From an uncultured Solirubrobacterales bacterium (GTDB lineage Bacteria; Actinomycetota; Thermoleophilia; Solirubrobacterales; Solirubrobacteraceae), in the NCBI GenBank assembly GCA_963744525.1, contig CAVUTV010000015.1, positions 16,624-80,623 on the forward strand: DNA of 64,000 nt, written 5' to 3'. The notes beneath the pieces are model-generated. The model was not told the DNA's origin. It ran no database searches and worked only from the letters and a program-made list of their open reading frames with translations. Both the position numbers and the translations under genes were made by a program. Positions 5,543 to 59,779 of this stretch are shown piece after piece. The first letter of the stretch is position 1, and the number at the start of each line of letters is the position of its first letter.

Positions 5543-5805
5543 GGGATTACGTTCTCATACCCCAGCCAGTGCGATGCCACTCGGCGTGCCTTCCGCGATG
5601 GCGACCGGCCGTACCGGGACCCTCATTCTGCGGACACGCTGACGCTCACAGCAGCTAGGCGCATCCGCCGGATCGGCCCGGGGGCGGCAGTCAGCACGTA
5701 CATTGTCGCGCCGCCGATGCCTGCTGCGCCGAGCACGGACCCATCCGAGGATTCTGTGGGGATAGGCTGGCCGTGTCACTAAGCAAGGATCGGAGGTGCG
5801 CCAGC

Positions 5806-7585: not shown

Positions 7586-7782
7586 AGAAGGATTCTGGCG
7601 CTCGACAGCGACGGTGTCTACCCTCGACGCCCCGACAGCCCACCCCGACGCAGCCTGCGCCAGCGAAAAGAAATCTCCATCTGTCGCTGAAGCGGAATAT
7701 GGTCGGCATCGGGCGGCGACTGCCAGTCGGGCCGCTGTCCTCAGATTGTTGGGCAAATTTGAGCACACACCGGGGGGTTCAC

Positions 7783-9339
7783 GTGCAGCGCTTTCGAGGA
7801 CTATTTGTGGCGGCGTCGATCACCGCAGCGTTCGTGTTGGCATCGACGTTTGGCGCGGCTTTGGCTACGGCCAACGCCCATCATGGGATCAAATCGATCC
7901 ACGTCACTGCGCCGTCGCTCGCGATCGCGGGCAGCTTCGCCAAGATCACAGGCCGAGTTTCCGACAGTGTTTCGGTCAGTCATGTGAAGCTCCAGCGCCG
8001 GCGCTCAAAGCATTGGAAAACGATCGCTCACGCGAAGGTGAAGCACGGCCATTTCACCCTTCGCTTCCGTACTCCGCGGAAGGCCGGTCTGATGAAGCTG
8101 CGCGTGATTGCAGGACCGACGGATCAACCTCTAGCTAAGAGCCGAGTCTTCGTGCTCAAGGTGGTTACTCGCTCCAAGGTCTTGCGAGCCTCCTGTGGAG
8201 CATCCAGCTCAGTATTTGTGCTGACTAGAGGCAAGAACGTGGTGGCGTACGTCCCGAAGGGGAACTGGGAAGGCGGTACTACCGGCGTTTCGGTGGTCAA
8301 CGTTGAAGGCACGAGCGTCACGCCGACACTGATACCCACACCGAACGTTGTGAATGCTGCCGGATCGAATCCGTTCACGGGTGAGACGGTCGCCACTGCA
8401 AACAACACGGACGTCTACCTCTTGAAAGGTAAAAAACGAATCAAGACGCTGAAGAGTGGCGGTACCAGCACGATCCACTTCTCGGGCGGCGACCCGACTG
8501 ACTCCGGGATCTCGATGGACCCGTCGCACAACCGTGCGGTAATCGGGCTGAGCGTTGCCGGCAGCCCGGGATTCCAGTTCCTGAATTTGAACTCCAACAC
8601 ATTCGGCTCACCGATCAAGTCACCAAACGGTGAGATCTCGGAGAATGCACTGATCGATCCTTTCCGAAACCTCCTGTTGTCCGCATCGGAAAACGGCACC
8701 TTCGAAATCGCCAAGATCTCAAATCCGGCAAGGCCTAGGTTCTACGAGAATGTCACCGGTGGAGGTGAGCTCGACTCGACAGGCGAGGACTGCGCAACCG
8801 GAATTGCACTCGCCCCAGCCGAGTTCTCGGACCCGTCAACTGTCTACATTGCGAACCTCACCCACGCGAAGTTCACCCCCGGATCACCTGCCGGAAAGTG
8901 GACGGCGCCGGAGCAGGTCCAGACTCTGTCCGAATCAAGCCTAAGTGCCGGAGCGAGCGCCGTAGCCGTCGCGCAAGGAACCCACACCGGCGTCCTGGCC
9001 GGAGAATTCGGGGGCAACGAGATCACAGCCTTCAGCCTCCCGAGGAGATCTGGCAGCGGCAAGCCGGCGATCACCGGCTGGGTTAGCTGTGGCATCGGCA
9101 ACACGCCAGACTCCAATCCGTGGAGCGAGGGCTTCGATCCTCACACCATGACCGCCTACCGGAGCCCGAATGGCGGGCACGCTTTCGGACTTTTCGGAAA
9201 CGGGGCCACCAGCTGGGTGGCGCGAGTGGACCTGACGAAACTGCTGAACCCAGCCATCGTCCCTCGTGACGGCGGCGGGCATGCGTGCGCCTCAGGAACG
9301 ATCCCTTCGTCCGTCGAGAGGTTCATCTCAGTGCCATAG
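7783..9339 (+). CDS. Secreted protein, basic N-terminal beta domain plus probable beta-propeller
   Basis: Sec signal peptide, Lys/His-rich N-domain, Gly/Ser/Thr-rich beta-strand repeats; codon usage less GC3-biased than neighbours. Confidence 0.75.
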   Translation: MQRFRGLFVAASITAAFVLASTFGAALATANAHHGIKSIHVTAPSLAIAGSFAKITGRVSDSVSVSHVKLQRRRSKHWKTIAHAKVKHGHFTLRFRTPRKAGLMKLRVIAGPTDQPLAKSRVFVLKVVTRSKVLRASCGASSSVFVLTRGKNVVAYVPKGNWEGGTTGVSVVNVEGTSVTPTLIPTPNVVNAAGSNPFTGETVATANNTDVYLLKGKKRIKTLKSGGTSTIHFSGGDPTDSGISMDPSHNRAVIGLSVAGSPGFQFLNLNSNTFGSPIKSPNGEISENALIDPFRNLLLSASENGTFEIAKISNPARPRFYENVTGGGELDSTGEDCATGIALAPAEFSDPSTVYIANLTHAKFTPGSPAGKWTAPEQVQTLSESSLSAGASAVAVAQGTHTGVLAGEFGGNEITAFSLPRRSGSGKPAITGWVSCGIGNTPDSNPWSEGFDPHTMTAYRSPNGGHAFGLFGNGATSWVARVDLTKLLNPAIVPRDGGGHACASGTIPSSVERFISVP

Positions 9340-9390: not shown

Positions 9391-9442
9391 ATTGCGGGGA
9401 ACCTAAAGACGCGGGAGGTCCGAGCGCCCTCTGATGGCTGCG

Positions 9443-9977
9443 TCAGGACGCGGCTGCTGCGACGTCCGCGTCCGGCGTCTCCGAGCTTTGTGCAGTCCCT
9501 CTGAGCGCCTCACGCAGCTGCTCCTCGGCGTCTTCGGTCAGAGACGTCTTGAGCACGGTACCGCCGTACTTGCTCAGTGCGGCAAGCGCCTTGTCCGGAG
9601 TGACCTTTCTGACGACCAGGAACAGCGCGGAGCTTCCCGGGCTTGACCATATCTCGGACCTCCTGCTGGAAGCCCTCGTCGATACCAACCTTCTCGATCG
9701 CACCGAACAGAAGTCCGAAGGCCCCGCCGATCGCAAGCCCGAACACCGGAACGAAGAACAGCAGCCCGAACAAGGCACCCCACAGCATGCCCCAAGTGGC
9801 GCCCTCGGCCACGGGGTGATGATTTGTGGTGACCTTGTACTTGCCCTTCTCATCGCGGGTGATCACGGCCACAGCCTCGGGCTCGATCAACAAGTCGTTT
9901 GCCAGGCGATAGACCTCCTCCGCTGCTTTAGCAGCGGTCTCCTCGTCGTCATATCCAATGGCGATCAGGTCTGCCAT
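9443..9977 (-). CDS. DUF1269 family membrane protein (frameshift near 9640)
   Basis: MADLIAIGYDD, GA.WGMLWGALFGLLFFVP, then SSALFLVVRKVTPDKAL...GGTVLKTSL in a second frame. Confidence 0.85.
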
Positions 9978-10025
9978 GCAGGCTCCCTTCTAAATAATGG
10001 CTTCAGATGTAGCTACGCGATGTGC

Positions 10026-10050
10026 TAGGCCGAGCGGAGCGCGGGACAAG
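10026..10050 (-). promoter_or_regulatory. Candidate alternative-sigma promoter CTTG-N17-CCTA (DUF1269 gene)
   Basis: Minus strand reads CTTG tcccgcgctccgctcgg CCTA gcac, about 50 bp upstream of the ATG. Confidence 0.65.
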
Positions 10051-10074
10051 GGCGCGGGGGCGCGGGGGCGCGGG

Positions 10075-10959
10075 TCACGCGCACGCCGCCACGCGCAGAC
10101 GCTCTAGTGCGGCGGCCTCGATCTGACGCACGCGCTCGGCGCTCACACCGAGTGTCTCGGCGACGTCGCGCAGGGTCTGCGCTTCGGTGCCGATTCCGAA
10201 GCGAGCACAGATGACAGTTCGCTCGCGGTCGCTGATCGCCGCGAGCAGCCGCGGCAGCTCAGCCACCAGGACCCGATCGGTCGCGGCCTCGTATGGCTCC
10301 GCCCCAACCGGATCGGCGAGCAACTCGCCCACCGTCGCCCCACCTCCGCTCTGTCCGCCGGCCGGCTCATCCAGGCCCCGCGCAGGCCGCTCGATCCGCA
10401 GCAGGCTTTGCACCTGGGTGCAGGTCAGATCGACAGCGCTCGCCAGCTCTTGGCAGCTGGGCTCGCCGCCGTGGCTCTGCTCGAATCGGCGCTGGGCGTC
10501 GCGGATCCGCGCGAGCTGGCGAAAGGCGCGATCGGACAGCACGCTGGGCCGCGACCGCTCCGAGACGAGTTGTTGCATCGCCTGGCGCACCCACCACGAG
10601 GCGTAGGCCCAGAACGGAACACCGAGGTCCGGGTCAAAGCGCTCAAGCGCGCGAAGCAGACCGACGACGCCGTCCTGCATCAGCTCGTTCCACTCGATCG
10701 AGCTGGACCTGCCGTAGATGCGGGCGAGTCCGGCGATCGAGGGCATGAATACCTCGATCAGCCGCTCGCGCTCGCACGTGCCGCCCTGCTGGGCGTCGAC
10801 GACTATCGGGCGCTCACCGTCCGAGAACCACCGGCTCCGCAGCCGGGGCGGTGCGTTGCGTCGTGCGTGTGGGCCCCGCGCCGGGAATGATCCGGTGCGG
10901 GTCGGAAATGATGGGGGTCGACGAGGTGGACGTATCGCCGTGGGGGATATGTTTTCCAT
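10075..10959 (-). CDS. Alternative sigma-70 family RNA polymerase sigma factor (regions 2-4)
   Basis: ELMQDGVVGLLRALERFDP, FWAYASWWVRQAM (2.3/2.4), TLRDVAETLGVSAERVRQIE (4.2); start uncertain. Confidence 0.9.
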   Translation of the reverse strand: MENISPTAIRPPRRPPSFPTRTGSFPARGPHARRNAPPRLRSRWFSDGERPIVVDAQQGGTCERERLIEVFMPSIAGLARIYGRSSSIEWNELMQDGVVGLLRALERFDPDLGVPFWAYASWWVRQAMQQLVSERSRPSVLSDRAFRQLARIRDAQRRFEQSHGGEPSCQELASAVDLTCTQVQSLLRIERPARGLDEPAGGQSGGGATVGELLADPVGAEPYEAATDRVLVAELPRLLAAISDRERTVICARFGIGTEAQTLRDVAETLGVSAERVRQIEAAALERLRVAACA

Positions 10960-11016
10960 GTCCACACCGTTGCCCGAGGACGGCGAGGTCAGCATGGCGC
11001 ATGCACCACAGATCGA

Positions 11017-11032
11017 GTGGGGAAAACCCCAC
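11017..11032. promoter_or_regulatory. Inverted repeat GTGGGG-AAAA-CCCCAC, candidate NarL/LuxR-type operator
   Basis: Perfect 6-bp arms in the divergent sigma/response-regulator intergenic region. Confidence 0.45.
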
Positions 11033-11164
11033 AAACGACGTAGAGTGGCCTCAAGCCGGACGCGCGGTGATGCCCCCAGAGGTCGCCTGTCGCCAACCAC
11101 CCGGAGCAGAATTCCGCCCAGGGCCATTTACCCGACAGCCGTGGAGGAATAGGTTGCACGGGCG

Positions 11165-11827
11165 GTGATCACGCATAAGGCGCTCCGAGTCGTCGTCGGG
11201 GAAGACCAACCACTCGTGCGCGAGGGCGTTGTCCACGTTCTCAGCGACGCCGGCCTCGACGTCGTCGCCGTGGCGGCCGACGCCGAGGACCTGATCCGAA
11301 AGGTACGGGCGCACAAGCCTGACGTCGTCGTGACCGATATCCAGATGCCGCCGGAAGGCACAGATGACGGGCTTCGGGCCGCGCAGCAGATTCGCTCGAG
11401 CATGCCCGAGGTCGGGGTGCTCGTGCTATCGCAGTTTCTCGAGGATCGTTACGCGCTCAAGCTGCTGGGCGATCGTCCCGACGGAGTCGGATATCTGCTG
11501 AAGCAGCGGGTCGGGGACGTGCCGAGCTTCGTCGAGGCGGTCCGGCGCGTGGCTGGCGGCGGCACCGTTCTCGACCCTGATGTAGTGGCCAGGTTGGTCG
11601 GCCGGCGTCGCCGGCGCAGCGCAATCGGTGATCTGAGCCCCCGCGAGCGCGAGGTACTCGCGCTGATGGCCGAGGGTCGCTCCAATCGCTCGATCGCCGA
11701 CTCGCTCGTCGTCACAGTGCCGGCGGTCGAGCGTCACGTGACCAGCATCTTCGCCAAGCTCGGACTACCTCAATCCTCAGACGATCACCGCCGAGTCCTG
11801 GCCGTGATCGAGTATCTCCATCGCTAA
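11165..11827 (+). CDS. NarL/LuxR family response regulator
   Basis: VVVGEDQ, DVVVTDIQMPP, GYLLK, LSPREREVL.LMAEGRSN..IA HTH. Confidence 0.95.
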   Translation: MITHKALRVVVGEDQPLVREGVVHVLSDAGLDVVAVAADAEDLIRKVRAHKPDVVVTDIQMPPEGTDDGLRAAQQIRSSMPEVGVLVLSQFLEDRYALKLLGDRPDGVGYLLKQRVGDVPSFVEAVRRVAGGGTVLDPDVVARLVGRRRRRSAIGDLSPREREVLALMAEGRSNRSIADSLVVTVPAVERHVTSIFAKLGLPQSSDDHRRVLAVIEYLHR

Positions 11828-11929
11828 CGCGAAAGACACATATCACTGGGCAGCCATGAGTACGCTGAATTGGCGGCGGGAGTAGCCTGCGCCTGCGTTC
11901 TTGGTCCCGCTGTCGAGAAGGGACCGAGG

Positions 11930-12592
11930 ATGGGCGAGCGCCAAGCCGAAGAGCCCGATCAGCCCAGCCGAGAGATCGCCCAGCGCGTTCTCGCAGCGAC
12001 AGACCGGGCACGACGGAAACTCGCCCGGGATCTCCATGACGGTGCCCAGCAGAAGTTCGTCACGGCGGTGATCAACCTGCAACTGGCGCAGTCCAGGTTC
12101 TCCTCGGATCCGCAGCGGGCAGAGCGCCATCTGGAGACCGCCCTGCGCCAGGCGACAGCGGGGCTCGACGAGCTCCGCGAATTCGTCTCGGGCATCCATC
12201 CGCCGGTTCTCGTGCACCTCGGCTTGAGCGCGGCGGTCGGGTCGCTGGCGGATGGGTTTCCGATCCCTCTGGAACTCGACATCACCGATCGGCGGCTACC
12301 GGCGGCCACTGAGGAGAGCGTCTACTTCTTCATCTCCGAAGCGCTGGCGAACGTGGCCAAGCACGCGCATGCGAACGTAGCGAGGATCCGAGTCGTGGCC
12401 ACCATCACTCTGCTGACGGTAGAGGTGAGCGATGACGGGATCGGCGGAGCGACGATGACCGTCGCCGGCAGCGGGATGATAGGCCTGGCGGACCGTGTCG
12501 AGGCCCTGGGCGGGGACTTTGCGTTCGAGAGCCCGCCGTCGAGCGGGACGGTGGTGCGAGGGACGATCCCGCTGCCGGCCGAGCTGCTCTAG
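11930..12592 (+). CDS. HisKA_3 histidine kinase with no evident sensor or TM domain
   Basis: RDLHDGAQQ H-box, EALANVAKHA N-box, VSDDGIGGA, GSGMIGLADRVEALGG. Confidence 0.88.
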   Translation: MGERQAEEPDQPSREIAQRVLAATDRARRKLARDLHDGAQQKFVTAVINLQLAQSRFSSDPQRAERHLETALRQATAGLDELREFVSGIHPPVLVHLGLSAAVGSLADGFPIPLELDITDRRLPAATEESVYFFISEALANVAKHAHANVARIRVVATITLLTVEVSDDGIGGATMTVAGSGMIGLADRVEALGGDFAFESPPSSGTVVRGTIPLPAELL

Positions 12593-12633
12593 TACGCGCG
12601 CACGCCACACGCTCAGTGGTGCCTTCGCAATGG

Positions 12634-15271
<2,638 letters not shown>

Positions 15272-15290
<19 letters not shown>

Positions 15291-15654
15291 GTGATCACCT
15301 CGTGCCTGGCGTGTGTCGGTTTCAAGGGCGCGGTGCGGCGCAGCCGCCGCTCAAGCTCGTCGATCCGCGCCAGCAGCTCGCAGGCGAGCACCGCGCCGGC
15401 GTAGTTGAGCCCGAGATCGCGCCGCAGCCTGACCGCGCGCCCGAGCGCAGCAGCGCGGCGTCCTGGCGCCGGAACAGCGGCGCCGCGGCGCGTGCCGCCG
15501 CGCGGGCTCGACCAGCCCGAGCGCGATCAGGCGGCGGACCAGCTCCGGGTGGAGCCCGGCCCGCCGGGCGAGCGCGTCGATCCCGATCAGGCCGCAACCC
15601 CGCGTGGCGAGCCGGGTGCCGGTACGCGTGGAGGTTCTCGTCGCTGCTCGCCAT
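15272..15654 (-). CDS. cbpM: Chaperone modulator CbpM / MerR_2-type protein (frameshifted)
   Basis: Reconstructed across frames: LARRAGLHPELVRRLIALGLVEP ... RLRRDLGLNYAGAVLACELLARIDELERRL; overlaps dnaJ stop. Confidence 0.75.
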
Positions 15655-16595
15655 CAGCCGACTCCGGCGCGGGTCGAACTTCGACACCGCGGCGAGCTGC
15701 TCGAACAGCTCGCGTTCCTCGCTTGGTCAGCTTCTTGGGCACCTGGATCGTGACGACCGCGTACAGGTCGCCGGGCGCGTCCAGCGTTGCCCGGGAGTCC
15801 CTGCCCGCGCAGCCGCAGCCTGCGACCGCTGGAGGAGCCCGGCGGCACCTTGACGCCGGGCGTGCCGTCGAGCGTCGGCACCGGGACCTCGGCGCCGAGC
15901 GCCGCCTCCCACGGCGTCACCGGGAGATCGACGTACAGGTCGCGGCCCTCGACGCGAAAGCGCGGGTGCGGCCTGAGCCGAACGCGCAGGAACAGGTCGC
16001 CGGACGGCGCCGCCCCCGATGCCCTCGCCACCCTGCCCGGCCAGCCGGATCCGCTGCCCGTCGCGCACTCCCGGCGGAATGTCGACCTCGAACTCGCGCC
16101 CGTCACCCAGCGACAGCCGCCGCTTGCCACCGCGCGCGGCCTCCTCGAGCGTCAGCTCGAGCACCGCCTCCTGGTCGTCCGCCGCGCACCGAGAAGCCCT
16201 CGAATCCGGCGCGACCGGCGCGACCGCGCCGTCCGCGCGCGCCGAACAGTCCCTCGAACAGGTCGCCGAAGTCGCCGCCCGACCGAAGTCGACGCGCACG
16301 TCGCGAAAGCCGTACCGGCGTCGAACCCGTCCCCGTCCCCCGTCGGGCCGCCGGCCGGGTCCTGTCCCGCTCGCCAGTTCGTGCCGAGGCGGTCGTAGCG
16401 CTCGCGCTTCTCCGGATCGCGCAGCACCTCGTAGGCCTCGGAGATCTCCTTGAAGCGGTCCTCGGCGCCCGGCTCCTTGTTCACGTCGGGGTGGTACTGG
16501 CGCGCGAGCTTGCGGTACGCGCGGCGGATCTCATCGGCGCTCGCGTCGCGCGGTACGCCCAGCGCCTCGTAGTAGTCCTGAGACGCGACCGCCAT
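15654..16595 (-). CDS. Class-B J-domain protein (DnaJ/CbpA-like, no Zn finger; frameshifted)
   Basis: [51 protein letters not shown]. Confidence 0.9.
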
Positions 16596-17110
16596 CAGTG
16601 CGCGTGCTCGGGGTGCGCGCGACAACGACCTGCGCCGGGCGGATCACGCGGTCGCCGAGCGCAAAGCCCGACCGCTCGACGGCGACGATCGTGCGGTCGG
16701 GCACCTCGTCTGACGCTGCACAGCGATCGCCTCGTGACGCTCCGGGTCGAAGCGCTCGCCGGGCGCGCCGATCCGCTGGGCGCCCTGCCGGGCGAGGACC
16801 GCCTCCATCTGCTCGAGCACCGCGCGCAGGCCGTCGCGCACGGCCCTCCGGCTCCATCCGCAGCGCGCGCTCGACGCTGTCGACAGCGTCGAGCCAGTCG
16901 CGCAGCACCGACTCCCTGGCGTCGGCCACGCGCCGCTCGATCTCGCGCGCCGCAGCGCTTGCGGTAGTTGTCGAGGTCGGCCAGCGCGCGCTTGTAGCGA
17001 TCCTCGATCGGCGCGAGCTCGGCGCCAGGTCGCCCGCGTCGTCGGCCGACGTTGGCCGGCTCGGGACCGGCGGCTGGGAGTCCGGTGGACGTGCCGGCTC
17101 CGTGCCCGTC

Positions 17111-17133
<23 letters not shown>
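16595..17133 (-). CDS. grpE: Nucleotide exchange factor GrpE (frameshifted)
   Basis: [52 protein letters not shown] across frames. Confidence 0.88.
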
Positions 17134-19162
<2,029 letters not shown>

Positions 19163-19202
19163 GTACGACCGCCGAGAGGGTTCCCAACCGCGAAGGAGCA
19201 AC

Positions 19203-19670
19203 ATGGCTCTCCCAGTCCGACGCAGCGAGGTCGTCTCGTCCCAACCCCTCGCAGCGCTGGGAGCCGTTCCGCGAACTCGAGCAGCTCCACGAGCAGATGG
19301 ACCGGCTGATGGAAGGAGTGGTCCCGGCCGCAGCGGGCAACGGCGGCACCTGGATGCCGGTCGCCGACATCGAGGAGACCGACGACGCCTGGATCGTCGA
19401 AGCAGAGCTGCCGGGCGTCGATCGCAAGGACGTGAACGTCGAGCTGCGCGACTCCGAGCTGATGATCACCGGTGAGATCAAGGAGAAGGAGCGCAAGGGG
19501 ATCCTGCGCCGGCGAACGCGCCGCACCGGCGGTTCGAGTACCGCGTCGTGCTGCCCGGGCAGTCCACCGACGAGCAGATCGAAGCGAACCTGCACGACGG
19601 CGTCCTCACGGTGCGCGTGCCCAAGACCGAACAGGCGCGGGCTCGTCGGATCGAAGTTACGGAAGGCTGA
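19203..19670 (+). CDS. Small heat-shock protein Hsp20 (frameshifted)
   Basis: AAGGAG RBS; WEPFRELEQL, PVADIEETDD, AELPGV, FEYRVVLPG, ANLHDGVLTVRVPK. Confidence 0.92.
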
Positions 19671-19955
19671 GTGCCGGCAGCCGCGGCCTCCCCGCGCCAG
19701 AATCCCCCGCCCGGCTGGCACCGGGCGGGGCAGTCCCTGGTCCGCGAACTGGCGTTCCGTGACTTCGATCAGGCGGTCGCGTTTGTGGAGCAGATCGCGA
19801 GGGCCGGAGAGGACTATCTGCGCCGGCCTGACATGTGCATCCTGGACTTCAATCACGTACGGCTGAGCATCAGCAACCCGCACCACGCCGGACTTACGCC
19901 GGCAGAGATGCGCCTCGCGGCCAAGGTCAATGCGGTTATCGACCGTCCGCAATGA
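19671..19955 (+). CDS. Pterin-4-alpha-carbinolamine dehydratase-like protein
   Basis: PGW...LVRELAFRDFDQAVAFVEQIA..E...RRPD....V...GLT.AE..LAAKVN; the usual HHP motif reads RRP. Confidence 0.75.
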   Translation: MPAAAASPRQNPPPGWHRAGQSLVRELAFRDFDQAVAFVEQIARAGEDYLRRPDMCILDFNHVRLSISNPHHAGLTPAEMRLAAKVNAVIDRPQ

Positions 19956-19987
19956 CGGTCCAGCCGGGGACCACCGGAGACGAGAGG

Positions 19988-20012
19988 GTTGTTCGCTCCC
20001 TGGTCCGGCCTA
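19988..20012 (+). promoter_or_regulatory. Candidate promoter GTTG-N17-CCTA (baeRF gene)
   Basis: GTTG ttcgctccctggtccgg CCTA ccaa, 18 bp before ATG 20031. Confidence 0.6.
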
Positions 20013-20030
20013 CCAACAGAAGCGATCGTG

Positions 20031-21251
20031 ATGAGCTCAGGCCCAGCCGACACCACCGTGCGCCCGGCTGCTGATGCGGACGACCAGCCGGTCAACCGGC
20101 GGACGATCGATCGCCTGGCCCACTTTCACGGCGGCGAGCTTCCCGTCGTCTCGATTTACATCAGCCTACCCCCCGGCTCGGACCCGCGCGGGACGGCGCG
20201 GACCAAGACCGACAGCCTCCTGCACCAGATCCGGAAGCTCGGCGCGGCCCGCTCACCCTCGACATGCCGCTCGCCAGTCGGTGCGAACCGACATCGAGCG
20301 AATCGAGGCCCGGGCGCGGAGCGGAGCGCTCAGACCCGGGACGCTGGCGATCTTCAGTTGCGGCGGAGCAGGGCTGTTCGAGACCGTTCAACTCCCGCGG
20401 CCGCTCCGAGACCGGCTCATGGTCGATGCGACGCCGTGGATCCGTCCGATGCTGGCGGTGCTAGACGAGTACCGCCGCTGCTGCACGCTCGTCTTGGATA
20501 GCGACTCAGCCCATGTGTGGGAGCTTTATCTGGGTGTGACGCGCGACGCGGGCAACCTGCACCTGCGCAACCCGCCACCGCGAAGCCGGCGTGGGCTGTC
20601 CGCTCGCAGCGACAGCGACAAGGCGGACGAACTCACCAGGCGGCACTTCCGAGGGGTCGCGAAGGCGCTCGAGCAGCTGTTTGCCGGCGAGCGCTACGAC
20701 GTGCTGGTCATCGGGGGTCACGAATACGAGCTGCCGGGCTTTCTCGACCTTCTCCCCCGCCAGCTGCGCGAGCAAGTCGTCGGGACGTTCTCGATCGACC
20801 CGCGCACGGCGAGCGGCGCACGGTCCGCGATCATGCGCAGGAGATCCTGGATCGCTACGAGCTCGAGGAGCAACGGCGCGGGGTGAGCAAGGTGCGCGAG
20901 GCCGCCAGCCGCCGGCGGGCTCGGCCGCGGTGGGGCTCGAGCGCTGCCTGTGGGCGGCGTCGGTGGCTGCGATTCAGACGCTGTACGTTCAGGACGGGGC
21001 GGTCGCACCTGGAGTCGTGTGCGATCAATCCGGATGGCTCGCGACCAGCGGAGACAGGTGTCCACTATGCGGAGGGCCGATGCGTGAAACACCGGACGTG
21101 ATCGAGGCGCTGGCCGAGGCCGTGATCGACGAGGGCGGCGCGGTCCATCACGTTCGGCGATCCGACCGTGCTCGAGCGCGAGCTGGCGGCCTCGTCACTG
21201 CGCTTCGCGCTCCCGGGCATGCCCGAGATCACTGGCGGGGTCGGGGCATGA
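20031..21251 (+). CDS. Bacterial aeRF1/eRF1-like release factor family protein (baeRF10-like; frameshifted)
   Basis: PVVSIYI, LAIFSC, VDATPWIRPMLAVLDEY, RRHFRGVA, LVIGG, Zn-ribbon C...CPLCG, DVIEALAEAVIDEGGAV, LRF C-terminus. Confidence 0.75.
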
Positions 21252-21531
21252 GCGTCTCATTTGGCGCCCGGCCCGCGGGATGCACTCACCTTTCACTGAT
21301 TCGACCCGTCGTCCCGCGAACCCCGCGGGCTGCGAGGAGTGCCTGCGTGACCGGCGTCGCGGTGGCTGCATCTCCGGCTGTGCCTGACCTGCGGTCATGT
21401 CGGCTGCTGCGACTCCTCGCCGGGCCGCCACGCGAGCCGGCATGCCCATGTCGTCGGCCATCCGATCGTCCAGTCGTTCGCAGCCCGGAGAGGACTGGCG
21501 CTGGTGCTACGTCGACGAGACGTACGTCTGA
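21248..21531 (+). CDS. UBP-type zinc-finger protein (frameshifted)
   Basis: CTHL...GCEECL...WLHLRLCLTCGHVGCCDSSPGRHA..H...GHPIVQSF...[10 protein letters not shown]. Confidence 0.88.
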
Positions 21532-23242
21532 GCGAGTCGAACGCCTGCGGGCTGGCCGCTGAGGAACTGGTGCACCTGGCGGATCGCGATGGCGCCGTCG
21601 CCGACCGCGGCAGCGACACGCTGCGTCGAGCCGCTGCGCACGTCGCCGGCGGCGAACACGCCGGGCAGGCTCGTCTCCAGCAGCTGCGGCGTGGGCGCCG
21701 CCGCGCCGTTGTCGTCCGTCAGCGAGGACGAGCGCCGCCGCGGCGTCCGTGGCCGGTGAGGACGTAGCCGCCGTCGTCGAGCGCGACGTGCCGCGGAGCC
21801 ACTCGGTGTGCGGCTCGCGCGCCGATGAACACGAACAGCGCGCGCGCGTCGACGCTGCGGCGCTCGCCGGTCTGAGGTGTCCTCGACGACGACGGCCTCG
21901 AGCGCGTCGTCGCCGATCAGCTCGCGGACCTCGCAGTGCGTGAGCACGGTCGATCGACGGCGTGGTCCGCGATCCGATCGGCGAGGTAGCGCGACATGTT
22001 CTCGTCCGAGGCTCCGCTCGCGAACGACGAGGGTCAGGCGCGGCACGTACCGGGCGACAGCAACAGCGTCGCCTGTCCGGCGGAGTTGCCGCCGCCGACG
22101 GCGACGACCGGCTCGCCGCGGCACAGCTGCGCCTCGATCCGCGTGGCCGCGTAGTGGACGCTGATGCCCTCGAGCTCCGTCGAGATCGGCGAGCGGCAGC
22201 GTGCGGTAGCGCACGCCGGTCGGCGATCACGACCGCGCGGCCGCACCGCATCTCGCCGTCGCGCAGCCGGATCCGGAACCCGCCGTCGAGCGACTCGAGG
22301 CCGACGGCCTCGCCGGGGATGGTGATCCGCGCGCCGAACTTCTGCGCCTGGATCGTCGCGCGCTCGGCGAGCTCCCGCCGGAGATGCCGGCCGGAAAGCC
22401 GAGGTAGTTCTCGATCCGCGACGACATGCTGGCCTGCCCCCCGGTGGCCACCGACTCGAGCACGACCGTCGTGAGCCCCTCGGAGGCGCCGTACACCGCG
22501 GCCGCCAGTCCGGCCGGCCCGGCGCCGACGACGACCAGATCGGCCGTCGTCTCCGACCGGTCCGGCGCGCTGCAGTCCCAGCGCGCGCGCCAGCTCGGCA
22601 TTGCTCGGGTTGCGCAGCACTCGATCGCGGACCGAGGAGCACGACCGGGCACTCCTCCGGCCGCACGCCGAGGCGCTGCAGGATCTCCTCGGCTCCCGGA
22701 TCCGACTCGAGGTCGACCCAGTGATGCGGCAGCCGGTTGCGGATCGCGAACTCCCGCAGGCGCCGGGTATCGGGCGAGTAGCGAGAACCGACGATCCGAA
22801 AGCCGACCCCCAGCCCGATCAGGACCGCGCGCCGCATGATCAGCGCCCGCAGGATCAGGTCCCCCAGCACGACGTCCTGCGTGACGATCTCGCGCAGCCG
22901 CTCCGGGCTGACGACAAGCACCTCGCCCGGCTCGCGCACGATCGCCGTCACGAACACCGCCTGCCCGGTGATCAGTCCGAGCTCGCCGAGGAAGCGACGC
23001 GGGCCGTGGACGCCGACCACCCGCTCGCCCTCTTCGGACTCCTCGACCACGGCGACCTTCCCCGCCAGGATGACGAAGAAGTCGCAGTTGCCGTCACCCT
23101 CGCGGTAGAGGACGTCGCCGGCCTTCACCCGCCGGCGCTCGCCGACCGTCGACAGCGCCGCGATCTGCTCCTCGCTCAGCCGGGGAAACGCCCCGTAGAG
23201 GTCGGGGGTCTCGGTCAGCGCCGAGTCTGGCGTGGCGGTCAT
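21507..23242 (-). CDS. cNMP-binding-domain thioredoxin reductase-like FAD oxidoreductase (frameshifted)
   Basis: GAFPRLS, cNMP domain (LYREGD, FLGEL), [52 protein letters not shown]. Confidence 0.9.
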
Positions 23243-23268
23243 CTCAGTCGGCTCTCTCGGCGGGTGCT

Positions 23269-23293
23269 TAGGCCGAAACCCGGCCGGGTCAAT
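23269..23293 (-). promoter_or_regulatory. Candidate promoter ATTG-N17-CCTA (TrxR gene)
   Basis: Minus strand ATTG acccggccgggtttcgg CCTA agca. Confidence 0.6.
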
Positions 23294-23308
23294 CCCAGCC
23301 GTGCCGGA

Positions 23309-23333
23309 CTTGATCGGCGCACGTAGCGTCCTA
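23309..23333 (+). promoter_or_regulatory. Candidate promoter CTTG-N17-CCTA (thioredoxin gene)
   Basis: CTTG atcggcgcacgtagcgt CCTA gcga. Confidence 0.65.
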
Positions 23334-23394
23334 GCGACAGCGGTGACACGTGAGCTCCCGCCCCGCCGGGGCGAAACCGAAGGAGTGTGATGCC

Positions 23395-23833
23395 GTGCCG
23401 GGCTCCATCATCGTCTGTCCCAACTGCGGCACCAAGAACCGCGTCCGCCCGCAGGCGACCGGCGTTCCGCGCTGCAGCGTCTGCCACACCCTGCTGCCGT
23501 GGATCGTCGACGCCTCGCCGGCGGACGTTCGATGAGGAGATCACGGCGTCGGTCCCCGTCCTGGTCGATTTCTGGGCGCCCTGGTGCGGCCCGTGTCGCA
23601 TGGTCTCTCCGGCTGTCGAGAGCGTCGGCCGCGAGCACGCCGGGCGCCTGAAGGTCGTCAAGCTCAACGTCGACGAGGCGCCGCAGATCTCCGAGCGGTT
23701 CGAGATTCGCGGCATCCCGCTGCTCGTGCTGTTCCGTGACGGCGCCGAGGTCGACCGCCTCGTGGGCGCGGTGCCGCAGCAGCAGCTGCGCGAGTGGCTC
23801 GAACCGCACCTAGAGCCGGTGGGCACCGGTTAG
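23395..23833 (+). CDS. Thioredoxin with N-terminal Zn ribbon (TrxC-like; frameshift near 23520)
   Basis: CPNCG.KNRV...CSVC plus VDFWAPWCGPCRM; AAGGAG RBS. Confidence 0.92.
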
Positions 23834-23855
23834 GGGAACCGGGTACTCCCGACCG

Positions 23856-24827
23856 CTAGTCGATGAGTCCGTGACGCAGGGCGGTGGCGACCGCAGCACA
23901 TCTGTCGCTCACGCCGAGCCTGCAGTAGATGTTGTCGAAGTGCGTTTTGACGGTGGTGGCGCTGACGCCGATCTGCTCGGCGATCTCAGCCGACGTGAGG
24001 CCGTTGGAGGCCAGGCTGAGCACCTCGGCCTGCCGTGACGTGATCGAGGGCGGATCCCCGGGCTCAGCGGACATGCGTGCCTGCAGGCGCTGCGCGCTCG
24101 CCCTCGCTCGCTCTGCGCTCCGGCGAGCAGTCGTGGCTGTGTGCCGCTCGGCGAGCTCCGGGTCGCCGCGACCAGCCAGGCGGTATCGCTCGGCGCGCTC
24201 CTCGGCGAGCTCGGCGGAGCGGTCCAGCCGCTCTGCCGTTCGCAGGTGCGCAGCGACAGCCGCGGCGTAGCTGTGCGCGGGCGTGGCAACCGCCAATACC
24301 GCATCGATGCGGCCGTTCTCGCCTCGCACGGGCACGGCGTCCACCGAGTATGCGTGGCCGTAGCTGGTGAATGCGAATCGGCCTCGCTCACCGGCCAGCG
24401 CTGCCGTGTAGTTCTCGACGCACAGCCTTCGCACGGGCGTCGGCATCTCGCAGATCTCAGGCAGTTGGCGCCCCACGAATAAGCCGTCCTCGAACCATGG
24501 CAGCCGCAGGATGGACTGGCCCCGCGCGGCTTGAACGACCAGGTCCTCGTTCATCAGGAACGACGTCGGGTCCTGCAGGCGCCGCGCCCGTGCGGGGCGA
24601 TCCGCAACGCGTCCGGCAAGGATGCCAAGAGCGAGCGCCTCGCGCGCGGAGGTGTCACCGGGGAGTCTCCGCATCAGCTCGTCGAAGTCGTCTGACAGGC
24701 CGTCGAAACGATCGACCCCCGGCAGATCGAGCCCGGCGGCCGCCAACGCCGCCGCCGCACCGGCATGCTCGTGGGCTCGGTCAAGTGCCCAGACGAGCGC
24801 CGACGCAGTATTCGTTTGAAGTGTCAT
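23856..24827 (-). CDS. LuxR-family regulator with PAS-like central domain
   Basis: C-terminal ITSRQAEVL.LASNGLTS.EIAEQIGVSATTVKTHF; PAS-like AALAGE...PVRGENGRI. Confidence 0.8.
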   Translation of the reverse strand: MTLQTNTASALVWALDRAHEHAGAAAALAAAGLDLPGVDRFDGLSDDFDELMRRLPGDTSAREALALGILAGRVADRPARARRLQDPTSFLMNEDLVVQAARGQSILRLPWFEDGLFVGRQLPEICEMPTPVRRLCVENYTAALAGERGRFAFTSYGHAYSVDAVPVRGENGRIDAVLAVATPAHSYAAAVAAHLRTAERLDRSAELAEERAERYRLAGRGDPELAERHTATTARRSAERARASAQRLQARMSAEPGDPPSITSRQAEVLSLASNGLTSAEIAEQIGVSATTVKTHFDNIYCRLGVSDRCAAVATALRHGLID

Positions 24828-32600: not shown

Positions 32601-32673
32601 TGGGCGGTGACGGGATCGAACCGCCGACCCCCTGCTTGTAAGGCAGGTGCTCTACCAGCTGAGCTAACCGCCC
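32601..32673 (-). tRNA. tRNA-Val (anticodon TAC), CCA not encoded
   Basis: GGGCGGT-TAGCTCAGCTGGTAGAGC-CCTGC CTTACAA GCAGG-GGTTCGATCC-ACCGCCCA cloverleaf. Confidence 0.97.
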
Positions 32674-37904: not shown

Positions 37905-38861
37905 TCAGCCCAGCGTCGCATCGACGGCCACGGCGACGAACAACAGTGCCAGGTAAAGCAGCGAGTAGTGAAAGACGATGCTGGCGGCGGCCGCCGTGCG
38001 CCGGTGCCACAGCCGCCAGGCCAGCACGGCGAACACAGCGCCGAGGCTGACCGCTGCGCCCAGGTAGATGGCTCCGAAGGTGCCGGTCAGGACCGGAAGC
38101 AGCGACACCGCCAGGAGCAGGAGCGTGTAAGCCAACACTTGACGAGCGGTGGCCTGAGAGCCCTTGACCACCGGCAGCATGGGGACGTCGGCGGCCTCGT
38201 AGTGGCGTTTGAGCAGCAGCGCCAGCGCCCAGAAGTGCGGGGGGGTCCAGACCAGCACGATGGCGAACAGAAGCCATGCGCCAAGGCCCAGCTGACCGTT
38301 GGCCGCTGCCCAGCCGGACAGCACGGGCATCGCGCCCGCGGCCCCACCGATGACGATGTTCTGCGTGGTGCTGCGCTTGAGCCAGACCGTGTAGATCAGC
38401 ACGTAGTAGACGCCGCCGGCCATCGCCAGCACGGCCGCCAGCAGATTCGTGAACGCAATCAGGGTGAGGAACGAGAGGGCTGAGAGCAGCAGCCCGAAGA
38501 CCACCGCTCGCCTGGGCGAGATGCGCCCGGCAGCGACCGGACGCGAAGCTGTCCGCTGTCCCATCAGGCGATCGATGTCCCGATCGAACACGTGATTCAG
38601 AGCGCTGGCCCCTCCGCAGGCGAGCGCACCTCCGACCACGAGCGCGAGCAACGCCCCAGCATCAGGTCGGCCGCCCGCGGCAGCCACCATCGCGCAAACG
38701 GCGGTCAGCACCAGCAGGGACATGATCCGGGGCTTGGTCAGCGTGAGATAGTCACGCCAAAGCGCCGGCCCCGGCAGTGGGGACGTGGCGGCCGGCAGCG
38801 CGTCCGCCGGAACGGTGCTCGGCGTGTGTAGTGGCTCGGCCAGGGGGTTGGTGACAGCCAT
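37905..38861 (-). CDS. ctaB: Protoheme IX farnesyltransferase (heme o synthase)
   Basis: LTKPRIM, DRDIDRLM.RT..RP, YT.WLKR.T.QNIVIGGAAGA, WTPPHFWAL. Confidence 0.95.
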   Translation of the reverse strand: MAVTNPLAEPLHTPSTVPADALPAATSPLPGPALWRDYLTLTKPRIMSLLVLTAVCAMVAAAGGRPDAGALLALVVGGALACGGASALNHVFDRDIDRLMGQRTASRPVAAGRISPRRAVVFGLLLSALSFLTLIAFTNLLAAVLAMAGGVYYVLIYTVWLKRSTTQNIVIGGAAGAMPVLSGWAAANGQLGLGAWLLFAIVLVWTPPHFWALALLLKRHYEAADVPMLPVVKGSQATARQVLAYTLLLLAVSLLPVLTGTFGAIYLGAAVSLGAVFAVLAWRLWHRRTAAAASIVFHYSLLYLALLFVAVAVDATLG

Positions 38862-38866
38862 GCGGT

Positions 38867-39604
38867 CTACTCCCGTGGAGCGGCCAGGCTCCGCAGATCG
38901 TGAGTCACGAAGTTGGGCGCAAACGGATACAGGTAGGCCGAACGCTCGAAGCCGCGGCGGTCGATCAAGTACACGGCCTCGGTGTGGGCGATGTCGCCGT
39001 TGACCTTCGGCCCGACGTAGATGTGGTAGGCGCGCCACGCCGCAGCCAGTTGTCGATGGGTGCCCATCAGCCAGTACCACGGGGCGACCCCGGCAAGCCC
39101 CCAGGAGCGGATCGCCTGCCGCACGCTGGCCTGCGTGTCCTGAGGATTGACGCTCACCGCCACCAGCACCGGGCGCTGCGCTGCGGGCAAGCCACGCTCC
39201 GCGGCCGCCAGCGCGTGGCCCTCCAGCGGGCACTCCTGTTTGCAGTGGGAGTCGAAGAACACCATGGCCACGGTGCGGCCGTGCAGCGAGGCGAGCGAGA
39301 AGTGGTGGCCGCTCTGATCAGCCAGGGTCGTGATCTGAGGGGCTGGACGAGCGCCGGCCGCCCACGTCGCCTGCCCGTCCAGCCCGTACCGGTGGGGTGT
39401 ACCGGGGATCGCTGCGACGCGGCCCTGCGAGGCCCGGAGACCGTTGCCGAGGGCCAGGCCGCCGGCGATGGCAGCGGCGACGCAGAGCGCTGCGGCCAAA
39501 CCGCCCAGCGCGAAGCGCGCGGGCCGGCGATGTCGGGGCCTAGGCTCCTTCCCGAATCCGCCCCGGCTGGTCCGCGTCCCCAGAACGGCCCCCGGGTCCA
39601 TCAC
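38867..39604 (-). CDS. SCO family copper chaperone
   Basis: FFDSHCKQECP (CxxxC), VSVNPQDT, IAHTEAVYLID. Confidence 0.9.
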   Translation of the reverse strand: MMDPGAVLGTRTSRGGFGKEPRPRHRRPARFALGGLAAALCVAAAIAGGLALGNGLRASQGRVAAIPGTPHRYGLDGQATWAAGARPAPQITTLADQSGHHFSLASLHGRTVAMVFFDSHCKQECPLEGHALAAAERGLPAAQRPVLVAVSVNPQDTQASVRQAIRSWGLAGVAPWYWLMGTHRQLAAAWRAYHIYVGPKVNGDIAHTEAVYLIDRRGFERSAYLYPFAPNFVTHDLRSLAAPRE

Positions 39605-39834
39605 ACCTCCTTCAACGGTGGATCTCCGGTCGGCTGGTTGAGGGCCGTGGTCGGAGCTGCGGCCGGGGCTGCGTGCTCGGCCGCCGTGGCCCTGCGGGCC
39701 TGGCTGGCATCCCCGCCGGGGATACGCCTGATGTACCAGATCAGCAACGTAGCCAGCGTGATCAGGAGCAGGATCGGCAGCAACATCGAGAGCAGCGATC
39801 CAGCGAGGAAAGTGGCGATCGGGAGCAGGTTCAT
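39601..39834 (-). CDS. Small single-TM protein in the oxidase operon
   Basis: Hydrophobic N-terminus; stop overlaps the SCO start. Confidence 0.65.
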   Translation of the reverse strand: MNLLPIATFLAGSLLSMLLPILLLITLATLLIWYIRRIPGGDASQARRATAAEHAAPAAAPTTALNQPTGDPPLKEV

Positions 39835-39847
39835 GCGCGTCTCTCTC

Positions 39848-40753
39848 TCAGGTGGTGATGACGGCCGGAGGCGCCGGCTGTGGCCGGTCGGGTCCCAGGA
39901 CGGGCTCGGGCTCGGGCGCGGGCGGATGCGGGCCGGGCTGCACCCGCGCGCGTTCCGGCTTGGCGCGGTCGGGCTCGAGCCAGCGCCAGAAGGCGAGGAA
40001 GGCGGCGATCGTGAAGGAGATCGAGCCGGGCACCCACATCATCCCCCCCGCCAGCTGCTGGTCGGTCATCGCGCTGATTCCGCCCGGCCGGTGAGCGAGT
40101 GCGGCGTAGTGCCCGTACAGCGGATGTTGGACGACGACCAGGACGATCGCCAACACCCAGCTAACGACCATCGCGCCAACCACGTAGCCGACCCGTGCGA
40201 CCCAGCCGAGACGGTGGCGCAGGGGCCCCGGATTGACGACATGAGCCCAGAACAACAGTCCTGTGAAGAAGAACATCGCGTGCTCGCAGTTGTGGATCGG
40301 CTGCGAGTTGAGCGTGGCGTTGTATGCGGCCGGGATGTGCCACACGACGATCGTGGCGTTGAACAGGATCCAGGCGGGGATCGGCCGAGCCAGGGCCCTC
40401 AACGGCGCCGTCCACTTCGCCTTGGCCAGGTAACGCCCGGTCCTGACCCGCGCCCGCATCGGCAGCGCCCGCCACATCCGCGGCCACGGCCGGCCGAGCA
40501 GGATCAGAGGCGGCGCCACAGTCAGCAGCAAGATGTGCTGGATCATGTGCACCCAGAACAGCTGGTCCGCGTAGGCGTCGATCGGCGAGTCGAGGGCGAG
40601 GACGATGGTGGCCAGACCAGCGGCAAAGACAACCGGCCGCCAGGGCTCGGTGTGAGCCGTGCGGTACTGGCGGCGCCCCCCCAGCCAATACAGAAGCGCG
40701 GCCGGGATGACGTAGATCAGAGAGGGGTCAAGCGACCAGGCCGTCCAGTCCAT
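39848..40753 (-). CDS. Cytochrome c oxidase assembly factor CtaG-like
   Basis: SPIDAYADQLFWVHMIQHILL..VAPPL, WHIP, H..EH, DQQLAG.MMWVPG. Confidence 0.9.
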   Translation of the reverse strand: MDWTAWSLDPSLIYVIPAALLYWLGGRRQYRTAHTEPWRPVVFAAGLATIVLALDSPIDAYADQLFWVHMIQHILLLTVAPPLILLGRPWPRMWRALPMRARVRTGRYLAKAKWTAPLRALARPIPAWILFNATIVVWHIPAAYNATLNSQPIHNCEHAMFFFTGLLFWAHVVNPGPLRHRLGWVARVGYVVGAMVVSWVLAIVLVVVQHPLYGHYAALAHRPGGISAMTDQQLAGGMMWVPGSISFTIAAFLAFWRWLEPDRAKPERARVQPGPHPPAPEPEPVLGPDRPQPAPPAVITT

Positions 40754-40766
40754 GGTCAGCCCACCA

Positions 40767-41405
40767 CTAGAGGAGGTAGAGGATCACCCAGGTGACGAAA
40801 CCGATCGCCACGAAGTACGCCCAGTAGAAGGAGCAGGCCTCGATGCCGGACTGAATCAGGGCCTCATCGTGGGCCGGCACGCCTTCCCGGACGTCGCGGG
40901 TCACGCCCTCACGCCCGACCCGCCACATGCTTGCCGCTTGAATCTCGACCCACACCAAGCCGAACAGCGCGAACAGGGCGTACAGAGTCGTCCAGCCCAC
41001 GAACACACTCGCGTAGCCGCCGCTGGAGGGACCAAAACCCAGGGTGGTGTACTCGATGCACTGCAGGATGACGGCGGCCAGGCCCAGGACCACGGCAGCG
41101 AAGGCGCTCAGCAGCGTCCGCGCCGGCCGGCCGCGCCCGAGACGGAAGACCACGCCGCTGAGGACGAACAGGACCATGATCGCGGTGCCCAGTCCGATCG
41201 ACGGGCTCACATGGGCGCCCATCTTCCAGCCTTTGTCCGGGTCGAGCGAACGCAGGTAGAAGTAGGCGAAAACGAACGAGATGAAGAAGAACGAGATCGA
41301 GCCGCACAGGAGCCGTGCATTCAGCCACAGCGCCCGCGGCTGCCAGCCGGGTGGCTCCGGTTCGATACCGGGGTGAAGTGGCGCCGAGGCGGCGGAGTAC
41401 TCCAT
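40767..41405 (-). CDS. Cytochrome c oxidase subunit III (short form)
   Basis: FF..F.FAYFYLR, Q.IEY..LGF....GGYASVF.GWT, YWAYFV. Confidence 0.8.
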   Translation of the reverse strand: MEYSAASAPLHPGIEPEPPGWQPRALWLNARLLCGSISFFFISFVFAYFYLRSLDPDKGWKMGAHVSPSIGLGTAIMVLFVLSGVVFRLGRGRPARTLLSAFAAVVLGLAAVILQCIEYTTLGFGPSSGGYASVFVGWTTLYALFALFGLVWVEIQAASMWRVGREGVTRDVREGVPAHDEALIQSGIEACSFYWAYFVAIGFVTWVILYLL

Positions 41406-41407
41406 TG

Positions 41408-43309: not shown

Positions 43310-44154
43310 CCTGCTCTCCTCGTCGGCGCCGGGAAGTACTGCTTGGCATAGGGCGGCAGCGTTTTGGTCGCCGGGGCGAACTGCTGCTGCTGCTGATGGA
43401 TCCAGGAAACGAATTGGCCCCTGGGCACCACCGCACCGGTGCTGTACATGTAGCCATGCCAGACGCCACACAGCTCTGCGCAGTGGACGTTGAACTTCAT
43501 CGGAGCCTTGGTGGTGACGTAGGCGATGTTGTCGATGCCCGGGTTGGCGTCGGCCTTGACCCCGAGCTGGTAGGCCCAGAACGAGTGGATCACGTCGAGC
43601 GAGGTGACGTGAAACTCGATCGTCGTGTTGGCGGGGATCTCCAGGGAATTGGTCTCGACTCCGCCATAGGCCGGGTAGCGATAGGTGAACATCCACTGCT
43701 GGGCGATCACCTGGACCTGAAGGAGCGGCCCGGTCTTCGCCGCCGCGGGAACGGCGATCGGATTCGGTCCCTGGCCACCGCCCGAGCCGTCAGCCAGAAG
43801 GCGGATGCTGCCGTACCCGGCCAGGAACAGGACCAGGATGGTCGAGGCGATCAGCCACCAGGTCTGAATCCGTGCGTCCCCACGGATCCCCGCGCCGTCC
43901 ACGACAGGCCCTGCCGGATTCCGCTCCCGGAAGGCCCAGAGGACGTACCCGAGGTACACGAGAACGCCAACTGCGATCGGCGTGGAGAGCCCGAGAAGCA
44001 CCGTGTTGTCCACGACCTGCCCGGATGACTGGACCGTTCCGTTCCCCGGGGGCATCCCCGGCGCCAGCACCAGGACGACCAGCAAGGTGAGGATCACGCT
44101 CAGGACGAACCAGATGACGGCGACCCGGCGGATGTGGTTTGTCTGGTCGTTCAT
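43306..44154 (-). CDS. ctaC: Cytochrome c oxidase subunit II (CuA)
   Basis: QQWMF.Y.Y, TSLDVIHSFW, CAELCGVWHGYM. Confidence 0.95.
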   Translation of the reverse strand: MNDQTNHIRRVAVIWFVLSVILTLLVVLVLAPGMPPGNGTVQSSGQVVDNTVLLGLSTPIAVGVLVYLGYVLWAFRERNPAGPVVDGAGIRGDARIQTWWLIASTILVLFLAGYGSIRLLADGSGGGQGPNPIAVPAAAKTGPLLQVQVIAQQWMFTYRYPAYGGVETNSLEIPANTTIEFHVTSLDVIHSFWAYQLGVKADANPGIDNIAYVTTKAPMKFNVHCAELCGVWHGYMYSTGAVVPRGQFVSWIHQQQQQFAPATKTLPPYAKQYFPAPTRRAG

Positions 44155-44163
44155 CCGCGCGGT

Positions 44164-59499: not shown

Positions 59500-59779
59500 A
59501 GGAAATCGAGGTGGTGGCGGCGTGGACTGGCCCGCCTGCCCTAGTGGCCCGGGCCGCCTGCGGGCCCGGACGGGACCCCTTCGGGACATGACCGCAGCCG
59601 AGCACACTACAATGACGCCCTGCGCGGCTCGATCCGCGGACCGGTTCTCCGATCCCGCCTGCCGCTACCGGCGAGCAACCGCCGCCGGAGGTCGTACCAT
59701 TACGTGGTTCGACGGGTCTGCTTCGGGCGCGTTGGTGGCGAGCCCCTAGCCCTAACACAACCGACACTCTGGAGTACTT

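Follow-up and report, generated by a model that had tools for sequence, protein, structure and literature searches.

We analysed a window of 64,000 nucleotides from contig CAVUTV010000015.1 of an uncultured Solirubrobacterales bacterium. The contig is called C15 within the source assembly G000 (2.8 Mb, 62% complete), and the other genomes and loci compared carry G and L numbers. Between positions 9443 and 23833 of the window lies an island of chaperone and stress genes that also encodes a sigma factor of the sigma70 family and contains six copies of one bipartite motif. Its features make it probable that this is an accessory stress cluster whose six shared motifs are likely promoters read by its own sigma factor, which would not be an RpoH.

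The sigma gene (10075..10959, minus strand) encodes a member of what we call the island clade, with Pfam regions 2, 3 and 4 and without the conserved region-1.2 signature. Its open reading frame is intact in the window, but its start is uncertain, since similarity to homologues begins only near 10860-10880. Behind it lies a DUF1269 gene (9443..9977, minus strand; PF06897) with one frameshift near 9640, whose tblastn alignment with an intact homologue falls into two pieces. On the other side, Pfam identified a divergent NarL/LuxR-type response regulator gene (11165..11827, plus strand) and a histidine kinase core (HisKA_3 and HATPase; 11870..12592, plus strand) with no sensor domain detected. 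The response regulator gene is likewise divergent from the sigma gene in the nearest homologous loci (L045-L048), and we infer that its product is a candidate controller of sigma expression.

A chaperone cassette follows on the minus strand, comprising an accessory second dnaK (17114..19019, at least four frameshifts), grpE (16609..17151), a dnaJ/cbpA-type gene (15654..16595), a CbpM-like gene (15287..15650) and clpB (12634..15290), the last four also frameshifted. All were assigned by Pfam and tblastn except the CbpM-like gene, which matches a 122-aa open reading frame of G017 and was named by its position in the gene order of annotated plasmid cassettes. The core dnaK of G000 is a separate gene on contig C8. 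On the plus strand are hsp20 (19203..19670, one frameshift; Pfam and tblastn), a pterin-4a-carbinolamine dehydratase-like gene (19671..19955; Pfam) and a frameshifted baeRF family 10 gene (20028..21160; Pfam and tblastn). The baeRF10 protein scored weakly (36 bits, far under the cut-off of 480) against the model of the MSMEG_1130-type (Balon-like) ribosome hibernation factor; PMC10901736 reports Balon-family genes next to hsp20, dnaK and alternative sigma genes. The island ends with a frameshifted gene for a thioredoxin reductase-like protein with a cNMP-binding domain (21507..23242, minus strand) and a TrxC-like thioredoxin gene with N-terminal CxxC pairs (23395..23833, plus strand; one frameshift near 23525), both assigned by Pfam and tblastn. 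Between 12.6 and 23.6 kb almost every gene is frameshifted; most carry one-base indels, in-frame stops are almost absent, and assembly error seems likelier than decay. No flanking repeats or integrase were seen around the island, and the nearest tRNA lies at 32601; patchy distribution is the one indication that the island may be mobile.

The six motif sites, first pointed out in a sequence-only reading of the window, are present at their coordinates and strands and have the form (C/G)TTG-N17-CCTA, with one N16 variant. They precede the DUF1269 gene (10026..10050, minus strand; 48 nt before ATG, 19.7 bits), the dnaK-grpE-dnaJ-cbpM-clpB cassette (19060..19084, minus strand; 40 nt before ATG, 18.9 bits), hsp20 (19139..19162, plus strand; the N16 variant, 40 nt before ATG), the baeRF10 gene (19988..20012, plus strand; 18.4 bits), the thioredoxin reductase-like gene (23269..23293, minus strand; 26 nt before ATG, 18.3 bits) and the thioredoxin gene (23309..23333, plus strand; 20.6 bits). 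Counted from TTG, each of the five N17 sites spans 24 nt and the hsp20 site 23 nt (10026-10049, 19060-19083, 19140-19162, 19989-20012, 23269-23292 and 23310-23333). Their distance to likely start codons is 15-61 nt, close to the 20-60 bp given in that reading, which was also right that five of the six contain CG(G/T)CCTA (the dnaK site reads AGTCCTA) and that none has the T at position 6 of a TAnnnT box. It had overlooked the frameshifts and five looser TTG-N16/18-CCTA matches elsewhere in the window. Matches at 5763, 7327 and 28609 lack a G that is conserved in the motif (see below), and one at 42330 lies inside coxI. A further N16 match, at 59732-59754 (plus strand) upstream of an NAD-dependent epimerase gene, has a low matrix score and is probably due to chance. 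In 1000 third-order Markov simulations of positions 9400-23900, the mean number of sites was 0.33 (maximum 4) and none reached the six observed; for the five N17 sites the simulated mean was 0.11.

Beyond the island, the N17 spacing was not in excess in G000 (29 occurrences versus 22-47 at other spacings), and a genome-wide regulon was therefore rejected. When the 2.8-Mb assembly was scanned with a matrix derived from sites in other genomes, six sites scored at least 18 bits, five of them in the island. The sixth, at C4:156441, is the strongest motif match of G000, so the island is not strictly self-contained, as had been proposed. That site precedes an apparently frameshifted homologue of a 62-aa protein (C4:156441-156620), homologues of which follow the motif in several islands. 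No site of at least 7 bits was found upstream of the sigma gene in the window, which speaks against autoregulation here.

To assess whether the motif defines a conserved class of promoters, we examined 79 homologous loci chosen by the sigma protein alone (the best 80 of 274). TTG-N17-CCTA occurred 246 times in them, versus 7-35 times for each other spacing, with the consensus (C/G)TTGAC-N11-CGNCCTA, its second part also written CG(G)CCTA. The G two bases before CCTA was present in 236 of 242 sites, though it was not part of the search pattern. No bases are conserved after CCTA, only 15 of 235 sites have a T at -7, and divergent site pairs are frequent. At 56 of 236 sites an ATG follows CCTA at a distance of 11-13 nt, versus 0-7 at each other offset; this would be the register expected of leaderless mRNAs and differs little from the one seen for SigA-type hexamers in G000, which show a start-codon peak at 10-13 nt. 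The genes downstream of the motif include dnaK (25 loci), hsp20 (23), a trehalose-synthase-like domain (19), thioredoxin (16), cNMP-reductase (10) and baeRF10 (10), as well as Dps, Usp, DUF308, G6PD, AhpC, YceI, aldo-keto reductases and a SigB/F-type sigma. The predicted targets thus form a general-stress set, not one for heat alone, and the heat-specific role first assigned to the island falls away. In 12 of 88 relatives the motif stands upstream of the sigma gene itself, which suggests positive feedback there. One extended example is a stress region of about 100 kb (G472:C11:1-119400, L307-L312), which has about 30 motif sites, nearly all before genes, and three sigma-family matches.

Such sites could also be operators bound by an island repressor or activator, for example a CbpM/MerR-like protein, and the CbpM-like gene within the dnaK cassette would supply a candidate. 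We regard this as very improbable: the sites are non-palindromic and strand-oriented, start codons lie at transcript-start distance from them, and CbpM cassettes of other actinobacteria lack the motif.

The sigma factor had been called RpoH-like on the strength of its region 4.2, which does read GVSAERVRQIE. SAERVRQ is common to this protein and E. coli RpoH, and it is one residue away from the SigB-type SRERVRQ. The factor belongs to the sigma70 superfamily (TIGR02937, 84 bits versus a cut-off of 42.9), and this was the only cut-off that it passed. RpoH models scored far below theirs (TIGR02392, 87 versus 323; PRK06596, 84 versus 241; PRK07500, 95 versus 315), as did group 1/2 models, among which RpoD/RpoS scored above RpoH (best 155 bits versus 384), and the SigB/F/G model TIGR02980 (85 versus 234). 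Comparison with the PDB gave 119 bits for SigA versus 55 for RpoH, and profile comparison gave 205 bits on SigA/SigB versus 108 on RpoH. The predicted structure has a normal sigma fold (predicted local distance difference test score 88.9), with SigS and SigA as the top Foldseek matches. Neither the RpoH box nor the region-1.2 signature occurs in any of 85 family proteins, whereas all five RpoH references have the box, which is named in PMC4843759 and whose pattern (Q[RK][RK]LFF) we read from those references. The family also has WWVRQ where RpoH has HWIKA and lacks the RpoH insertion in region 3.0.

Two trees were built, the first by a quick method and the second under LG+G4 on 28 rows. They place the family on its own branch and RpoH, represented by five rows only, in a 100/100 clade without it. 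Under LG+G4 the family adjoins two SigB/F-type sequences (97/94, on long branches) outside group 1/2. The RpoH label is therefore not borne out, given the missing box, the scores below cut-off and the position outside the RpoH clade, and the factor apparently represents a separate sigma70 branch and an undescribed family. The phylogenetic check proposed earlier gave a divided answer: the best 28-row tree separates the family from RpoH, but forcing the two together costs 9.6 log units with p=0.068 in an approximately unbiased (AU) test, so that a sister relation is not rejected. This p value, the shared SAERVRQ and the promoter geometry, TTG-N17-CCTA being that of S. meliloti RpoH promoters, would suit a true but highly diverged RpoH acquired from proteobacteria together with its promoters, with no convergence involved. 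In view of the missing box, signature and insertion, the WWVRQ motif, the profile scores and the separate RpoH clade, we consider such an origin improbable.

The residues expected to contact the promoter were compared in 93 aligned family sequences, using E. coli sigma70 numbering. According to PMC5101437 and PMC7566282, the pocket for T-7 is formed by region 1.2 with N383, R385/L386, K426 and S428, and the extended -10 element is read by E458, R441 and V454. In the family the pocket residues are replaced (N383F, with F383 in 87/93; R385P, 93/93; K426P, 87/93; S428W, 92/93), which fits a motif lacking T-7, and so are those for the extended -10 (V454D, H455R, E458R, T440Q and R441Q). SigA-like residues for -35 recognition and melting are kept (E585, R588, Y430, W433, W434, Q437 and the ERxRQ motif). 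PMC10216364 describes how RpoH uses K130, which is basic and lies in region 3.0, to read its C-rich extended -10; R458 may be analogous to K130, though the two are not aligned here. RpoS also has a basic residue at 458.

The sequence-only reading had pointed to the absence of HAIR and CIRCE, and indeed neither matched on contig C15 with the general consensus patterns. Elsewhere in G000, HrcA is encoded and CIRCE lies at the core groES, while a MerR gene stands behind the core dnaK-grpE-dnaJ. Upstream of the core dnaK, a conserved imperfect palindrome, ATCTGCTA-N7-(A/G)CT(C/T/A)AGAT, is present in 25 of 25 loci (L141-L165; G000:C8:11915 region) and unique in G000. It overlaps a TAnnnT (-10) box and has the HAIR spacing but departs from the general HAIR consensus; a form of the HspR operator particular to this lineage is likely. 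The island motif was not found upstream of the core dnaK in these 25 loci. The idea that the island is the host's heat-shock system thus does not hold, with HrcA/CIRCE at the core groES and a HAIR-like palindrome plus MerR gene at the core dnaK; the island is predicted to supplement canonical control, not to replace it.

Homologues came from Solirubrobacterales/Thermoleophilia records. The sigma factor was found in 11 of 36 same-genus genomes at E < 1e-55 (counting as negatives the unpublished G025 and G030, which enter into no other result), in 37 of 200 family genomes, in 9 of 300 from the class and in 2 of 400 from the phylum; all of these draws were sampled, and in each genome a small number of candidates was scored. 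The factor is accessory and patchily distributed. The 37 sigma-positive family genomes contain 87 strict motif sites, 50 of them within 35 kb of a sigma copy, versus 58 sites in the 163 sigma-negative genomes (2.35 versus 0.36 per genome), and no core regulon with the motif was seen in the latter. Among 80 loci found by the island DnaK (15 of them without upstream DNA), the motif preceded dnaK in 21 of the 25 loci with an identity of at least 80% and in none of the 40 with a lower one; the seven sigma copies among these loci are all in the former group. G190 carries a minimal module of sigma gene, motif and hsp20. A candidate case of motif pairs without sigma, in G022, was rejected, as a contig-truncated sigma gene adjoins the pairs.

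The difference between CCTA and CTTA tracks residue 437 of the protein. Loci with K437 have 8 CTTA and 1 CCTA sites (10 loci), versus 10 CTTA and 186 CCTA at loci with Q437 (110 loci). The K437 loci belong to a subclade with F433/K437/E441 that occurs in four families; next to its sigma genes stands TTG-N15/16-GNCTTA, and its targets are different (glyoxalase, epoxide hydrolase); FKQE is common to 117 of 120 homologues of the K437 subclade, and three F433/Q437 loci keep CCTA. Another sigma subclade, with altered region 2.3-3.0 (L040-L044, in G009 and G002), has neither CCTA nor CTTA nearby.

Several observations weigh against the sigma factor as reader of the motif. The genomes are related and carry motif and sigma on one island, so that co-occurrence alone cannot name the reader, and the contrast between dnaK loci is confounded with host lineage. 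The K437 switch is a single evolutionary event, so the Fisher p (6e-9) overstates the association; of the ten K437 loci, four are without CTTA and CCTA occurs at one. No site lies near some family members (L040-L044, L314), and the island genes of G000 are frameshifted in the assembly. Orphan sites lie before stress-type genes in two genomes where no sigma was found: three sites form a cluster in G008, which is 92% complete, and two lie in G203, which is 100% complete. G014, a fragmented assembly with an island dnaK in which neither motif nor sigma was found, is listed here as well, though we grade it neutral to favourable. Finally, a groES promoter in genus g279, TTGACT-N16-TAGAAT between two CIRCE elements (L305, G601:C3:576773), fits both the motif and SigA; it could be a dual promoter or a coincidence, and shows how the motif class and the SigA-type class can overlap.

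These orphan sites and the g279 promoter, the resemblance of TTGAC-N16/17-TA to a SigA promoter and the several group 1/2 sigmas in these genomes would agree with reading by a host sigma (SigA or group 2), which an activator from the island, for instance the response regulator, might assist; the sigma of the island would then be a passenger or have another target. We give this a small probability. T-7 is depleted at the sites, yet NLRLV and FSTYA are intact in those group 1/2 sigmas of the host that were inspected; the response regulator occurs in 31 of 99 loci only and is absent from the G190 module; the motif forms no core regulon where the sigma is missing; and CCTA/CTTA tracks residue 437, which would not be expected of a passenger sigma.

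The original proposal that the sigma drives the locus through the motif thus stands in part: the motif very likely marks a class of promoters that the co-encoded sigma reads, but the RpoH identity of this sigma was not sustained. In the mechanism that we propose, region 4.2 would bind TTG(AC), and R/D residues of region 3.0 together with Q437/Q440/Q441 would read the duplex G-N-C-C upstream of T-12/A-11. A-11 would be flipped as usual and T-7 would not be read. Specificity would then lie in the upstream duplex and the exact spacing, leaving these promoters largely unread by the host SigA. Once the sigma is made, all genes of the cluster would turn on together. The trigger would probably be a general or proteotoxic stress that affects transcription of the sigma gene, here via the divergent response regulator. 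On balance, we lean towards a broader view of a new sigma70 family, neither group 1/2, RpoH nor SigB/F. Its T-7 pocket would be filled in, and a few identifiable residues would read an upstream G-N-C-(C/T)-T-A code, with the 437/441 pair retuning the -13 base. Having converged on RpoH geometry, it would serve as a portable, host-orthogonal switch between actinobacterial lineages, with regulons of up to about 30 promoters.

Among known systems, the alphaproteobacterial RpoH promoters are closest in geometry, as had been noticed: PMC4843759 gives CTTGAA-N15-16-CCTATAT and, for RpoH1/RpoH2, CTTGAA/CTTGCC-N15-16-CCTAT. RpoH1/RpoH2 resemble the island system in having TTG-N17-CCTA, a promoter of the CTTG-N17/18-CCTA geometry, before chaperone genes, in the targets dnaK, clpB, hsp20 and trx and in a similar 4.2 helix. 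The island sigma differs in lacking the RpoH box and region-1.2 signature, in WW instead of HW, in its separate clade and in being accessory, not the host's core heat-shock regulator; its motif lacks the downstream TAT/T part and has the almost invariant G two bases upstream. It may therefore work like an RpoH-style dedicated chaperone and stress sigma without being a member of RpoH.

SigA/RpoD, actinobacterial SigB and RpoS are the best matches in sequence, profile and fold and share Y430, W433, W434, Q437 and ERxRQ, but identity is about 30%, the T-7 pocket and extended -10 residues are replaced and the 1.1/1.2 signature is absent. SigB/SigF are similar in short architecture, in targets (Dps, Usp, DUF308, trehalose synthase domain, G6PD, aldo-keto reductases) and in the MEDS/STAS neighbours of some island loci. 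The SigB/F promoter is of the GTTT-N-GGGTA type, from which the island consensus differs, and no anti-sigma gene stands beside the sigma gene here. The HspR/HAIR and HrcA/CIRCE circuits, present in the host for the core dnaK (HAIR-like, as proposed above) and groES and not found at the island, work by repressor control, whereas the island would use a dedicated sigma. The dnaK-grpE-dnaJ-cbpM-clpB cassette itself also occurs on actinomycete plasmids; the four annotated ones inspected (Nocardia, Rhodococcus, Streptomyces and Arthrobacter) have 0-1 motif sites and no such sigma. A SigF/B-type pattern was tried as regulator of these motif-less cassettes and discarded for its many unspecific matches. 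The name "heat shock island" has been used in Propionibacterium freudenreichii (PMC5644110).

No description of this sigma or motif in this lineage was found in the literature searched, most subscription journals lying outside the search. If the interpretation is true, it adds a sigma family and promoter for an abundant, barely studied soil lineage (the Solirubrobacter group), and shows that a chaperone island of the accessory kind can come with a transcription switch of its own. The system would offer a natural test of -10 recognition by sigma70 proteins without T-7, and its residue-to-base covariation (Q437/CCTA versus K437/CTTA) could be examined directly in vitro. It would also exemplify how a sigma can converge on promoters like those of RpoH, and its sigma and promoter are a candidate orthogonal pair for engineering actinobacteria. 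Public sequencing runs covered at most 11% of words, only in conserved parts of relatives, and gave no evidence on expression, starts or frameshifts.

Some minor observations were made along the way. A divergent rpoH, at about 77% to E. coli, is present on plasmids of enterobacteria; in L300 (CP057248.1) it lies beside a Dyp peroxidase and a "bacteriocin family" gene, and no chaperone genes were found beside plasmid-borne rpoH in the one E. coli record examined. In the window, a low-GC stretch (61%) adjoining the island encodes a secreted-looking protein of 546 aa with no Pfam match (7699-9339, plus strand), and a cytochrome c oxidase cluster (coxII, coxI, ctaG, SCO1 and UbiA) occupies 37908-44163 on the minus strand.

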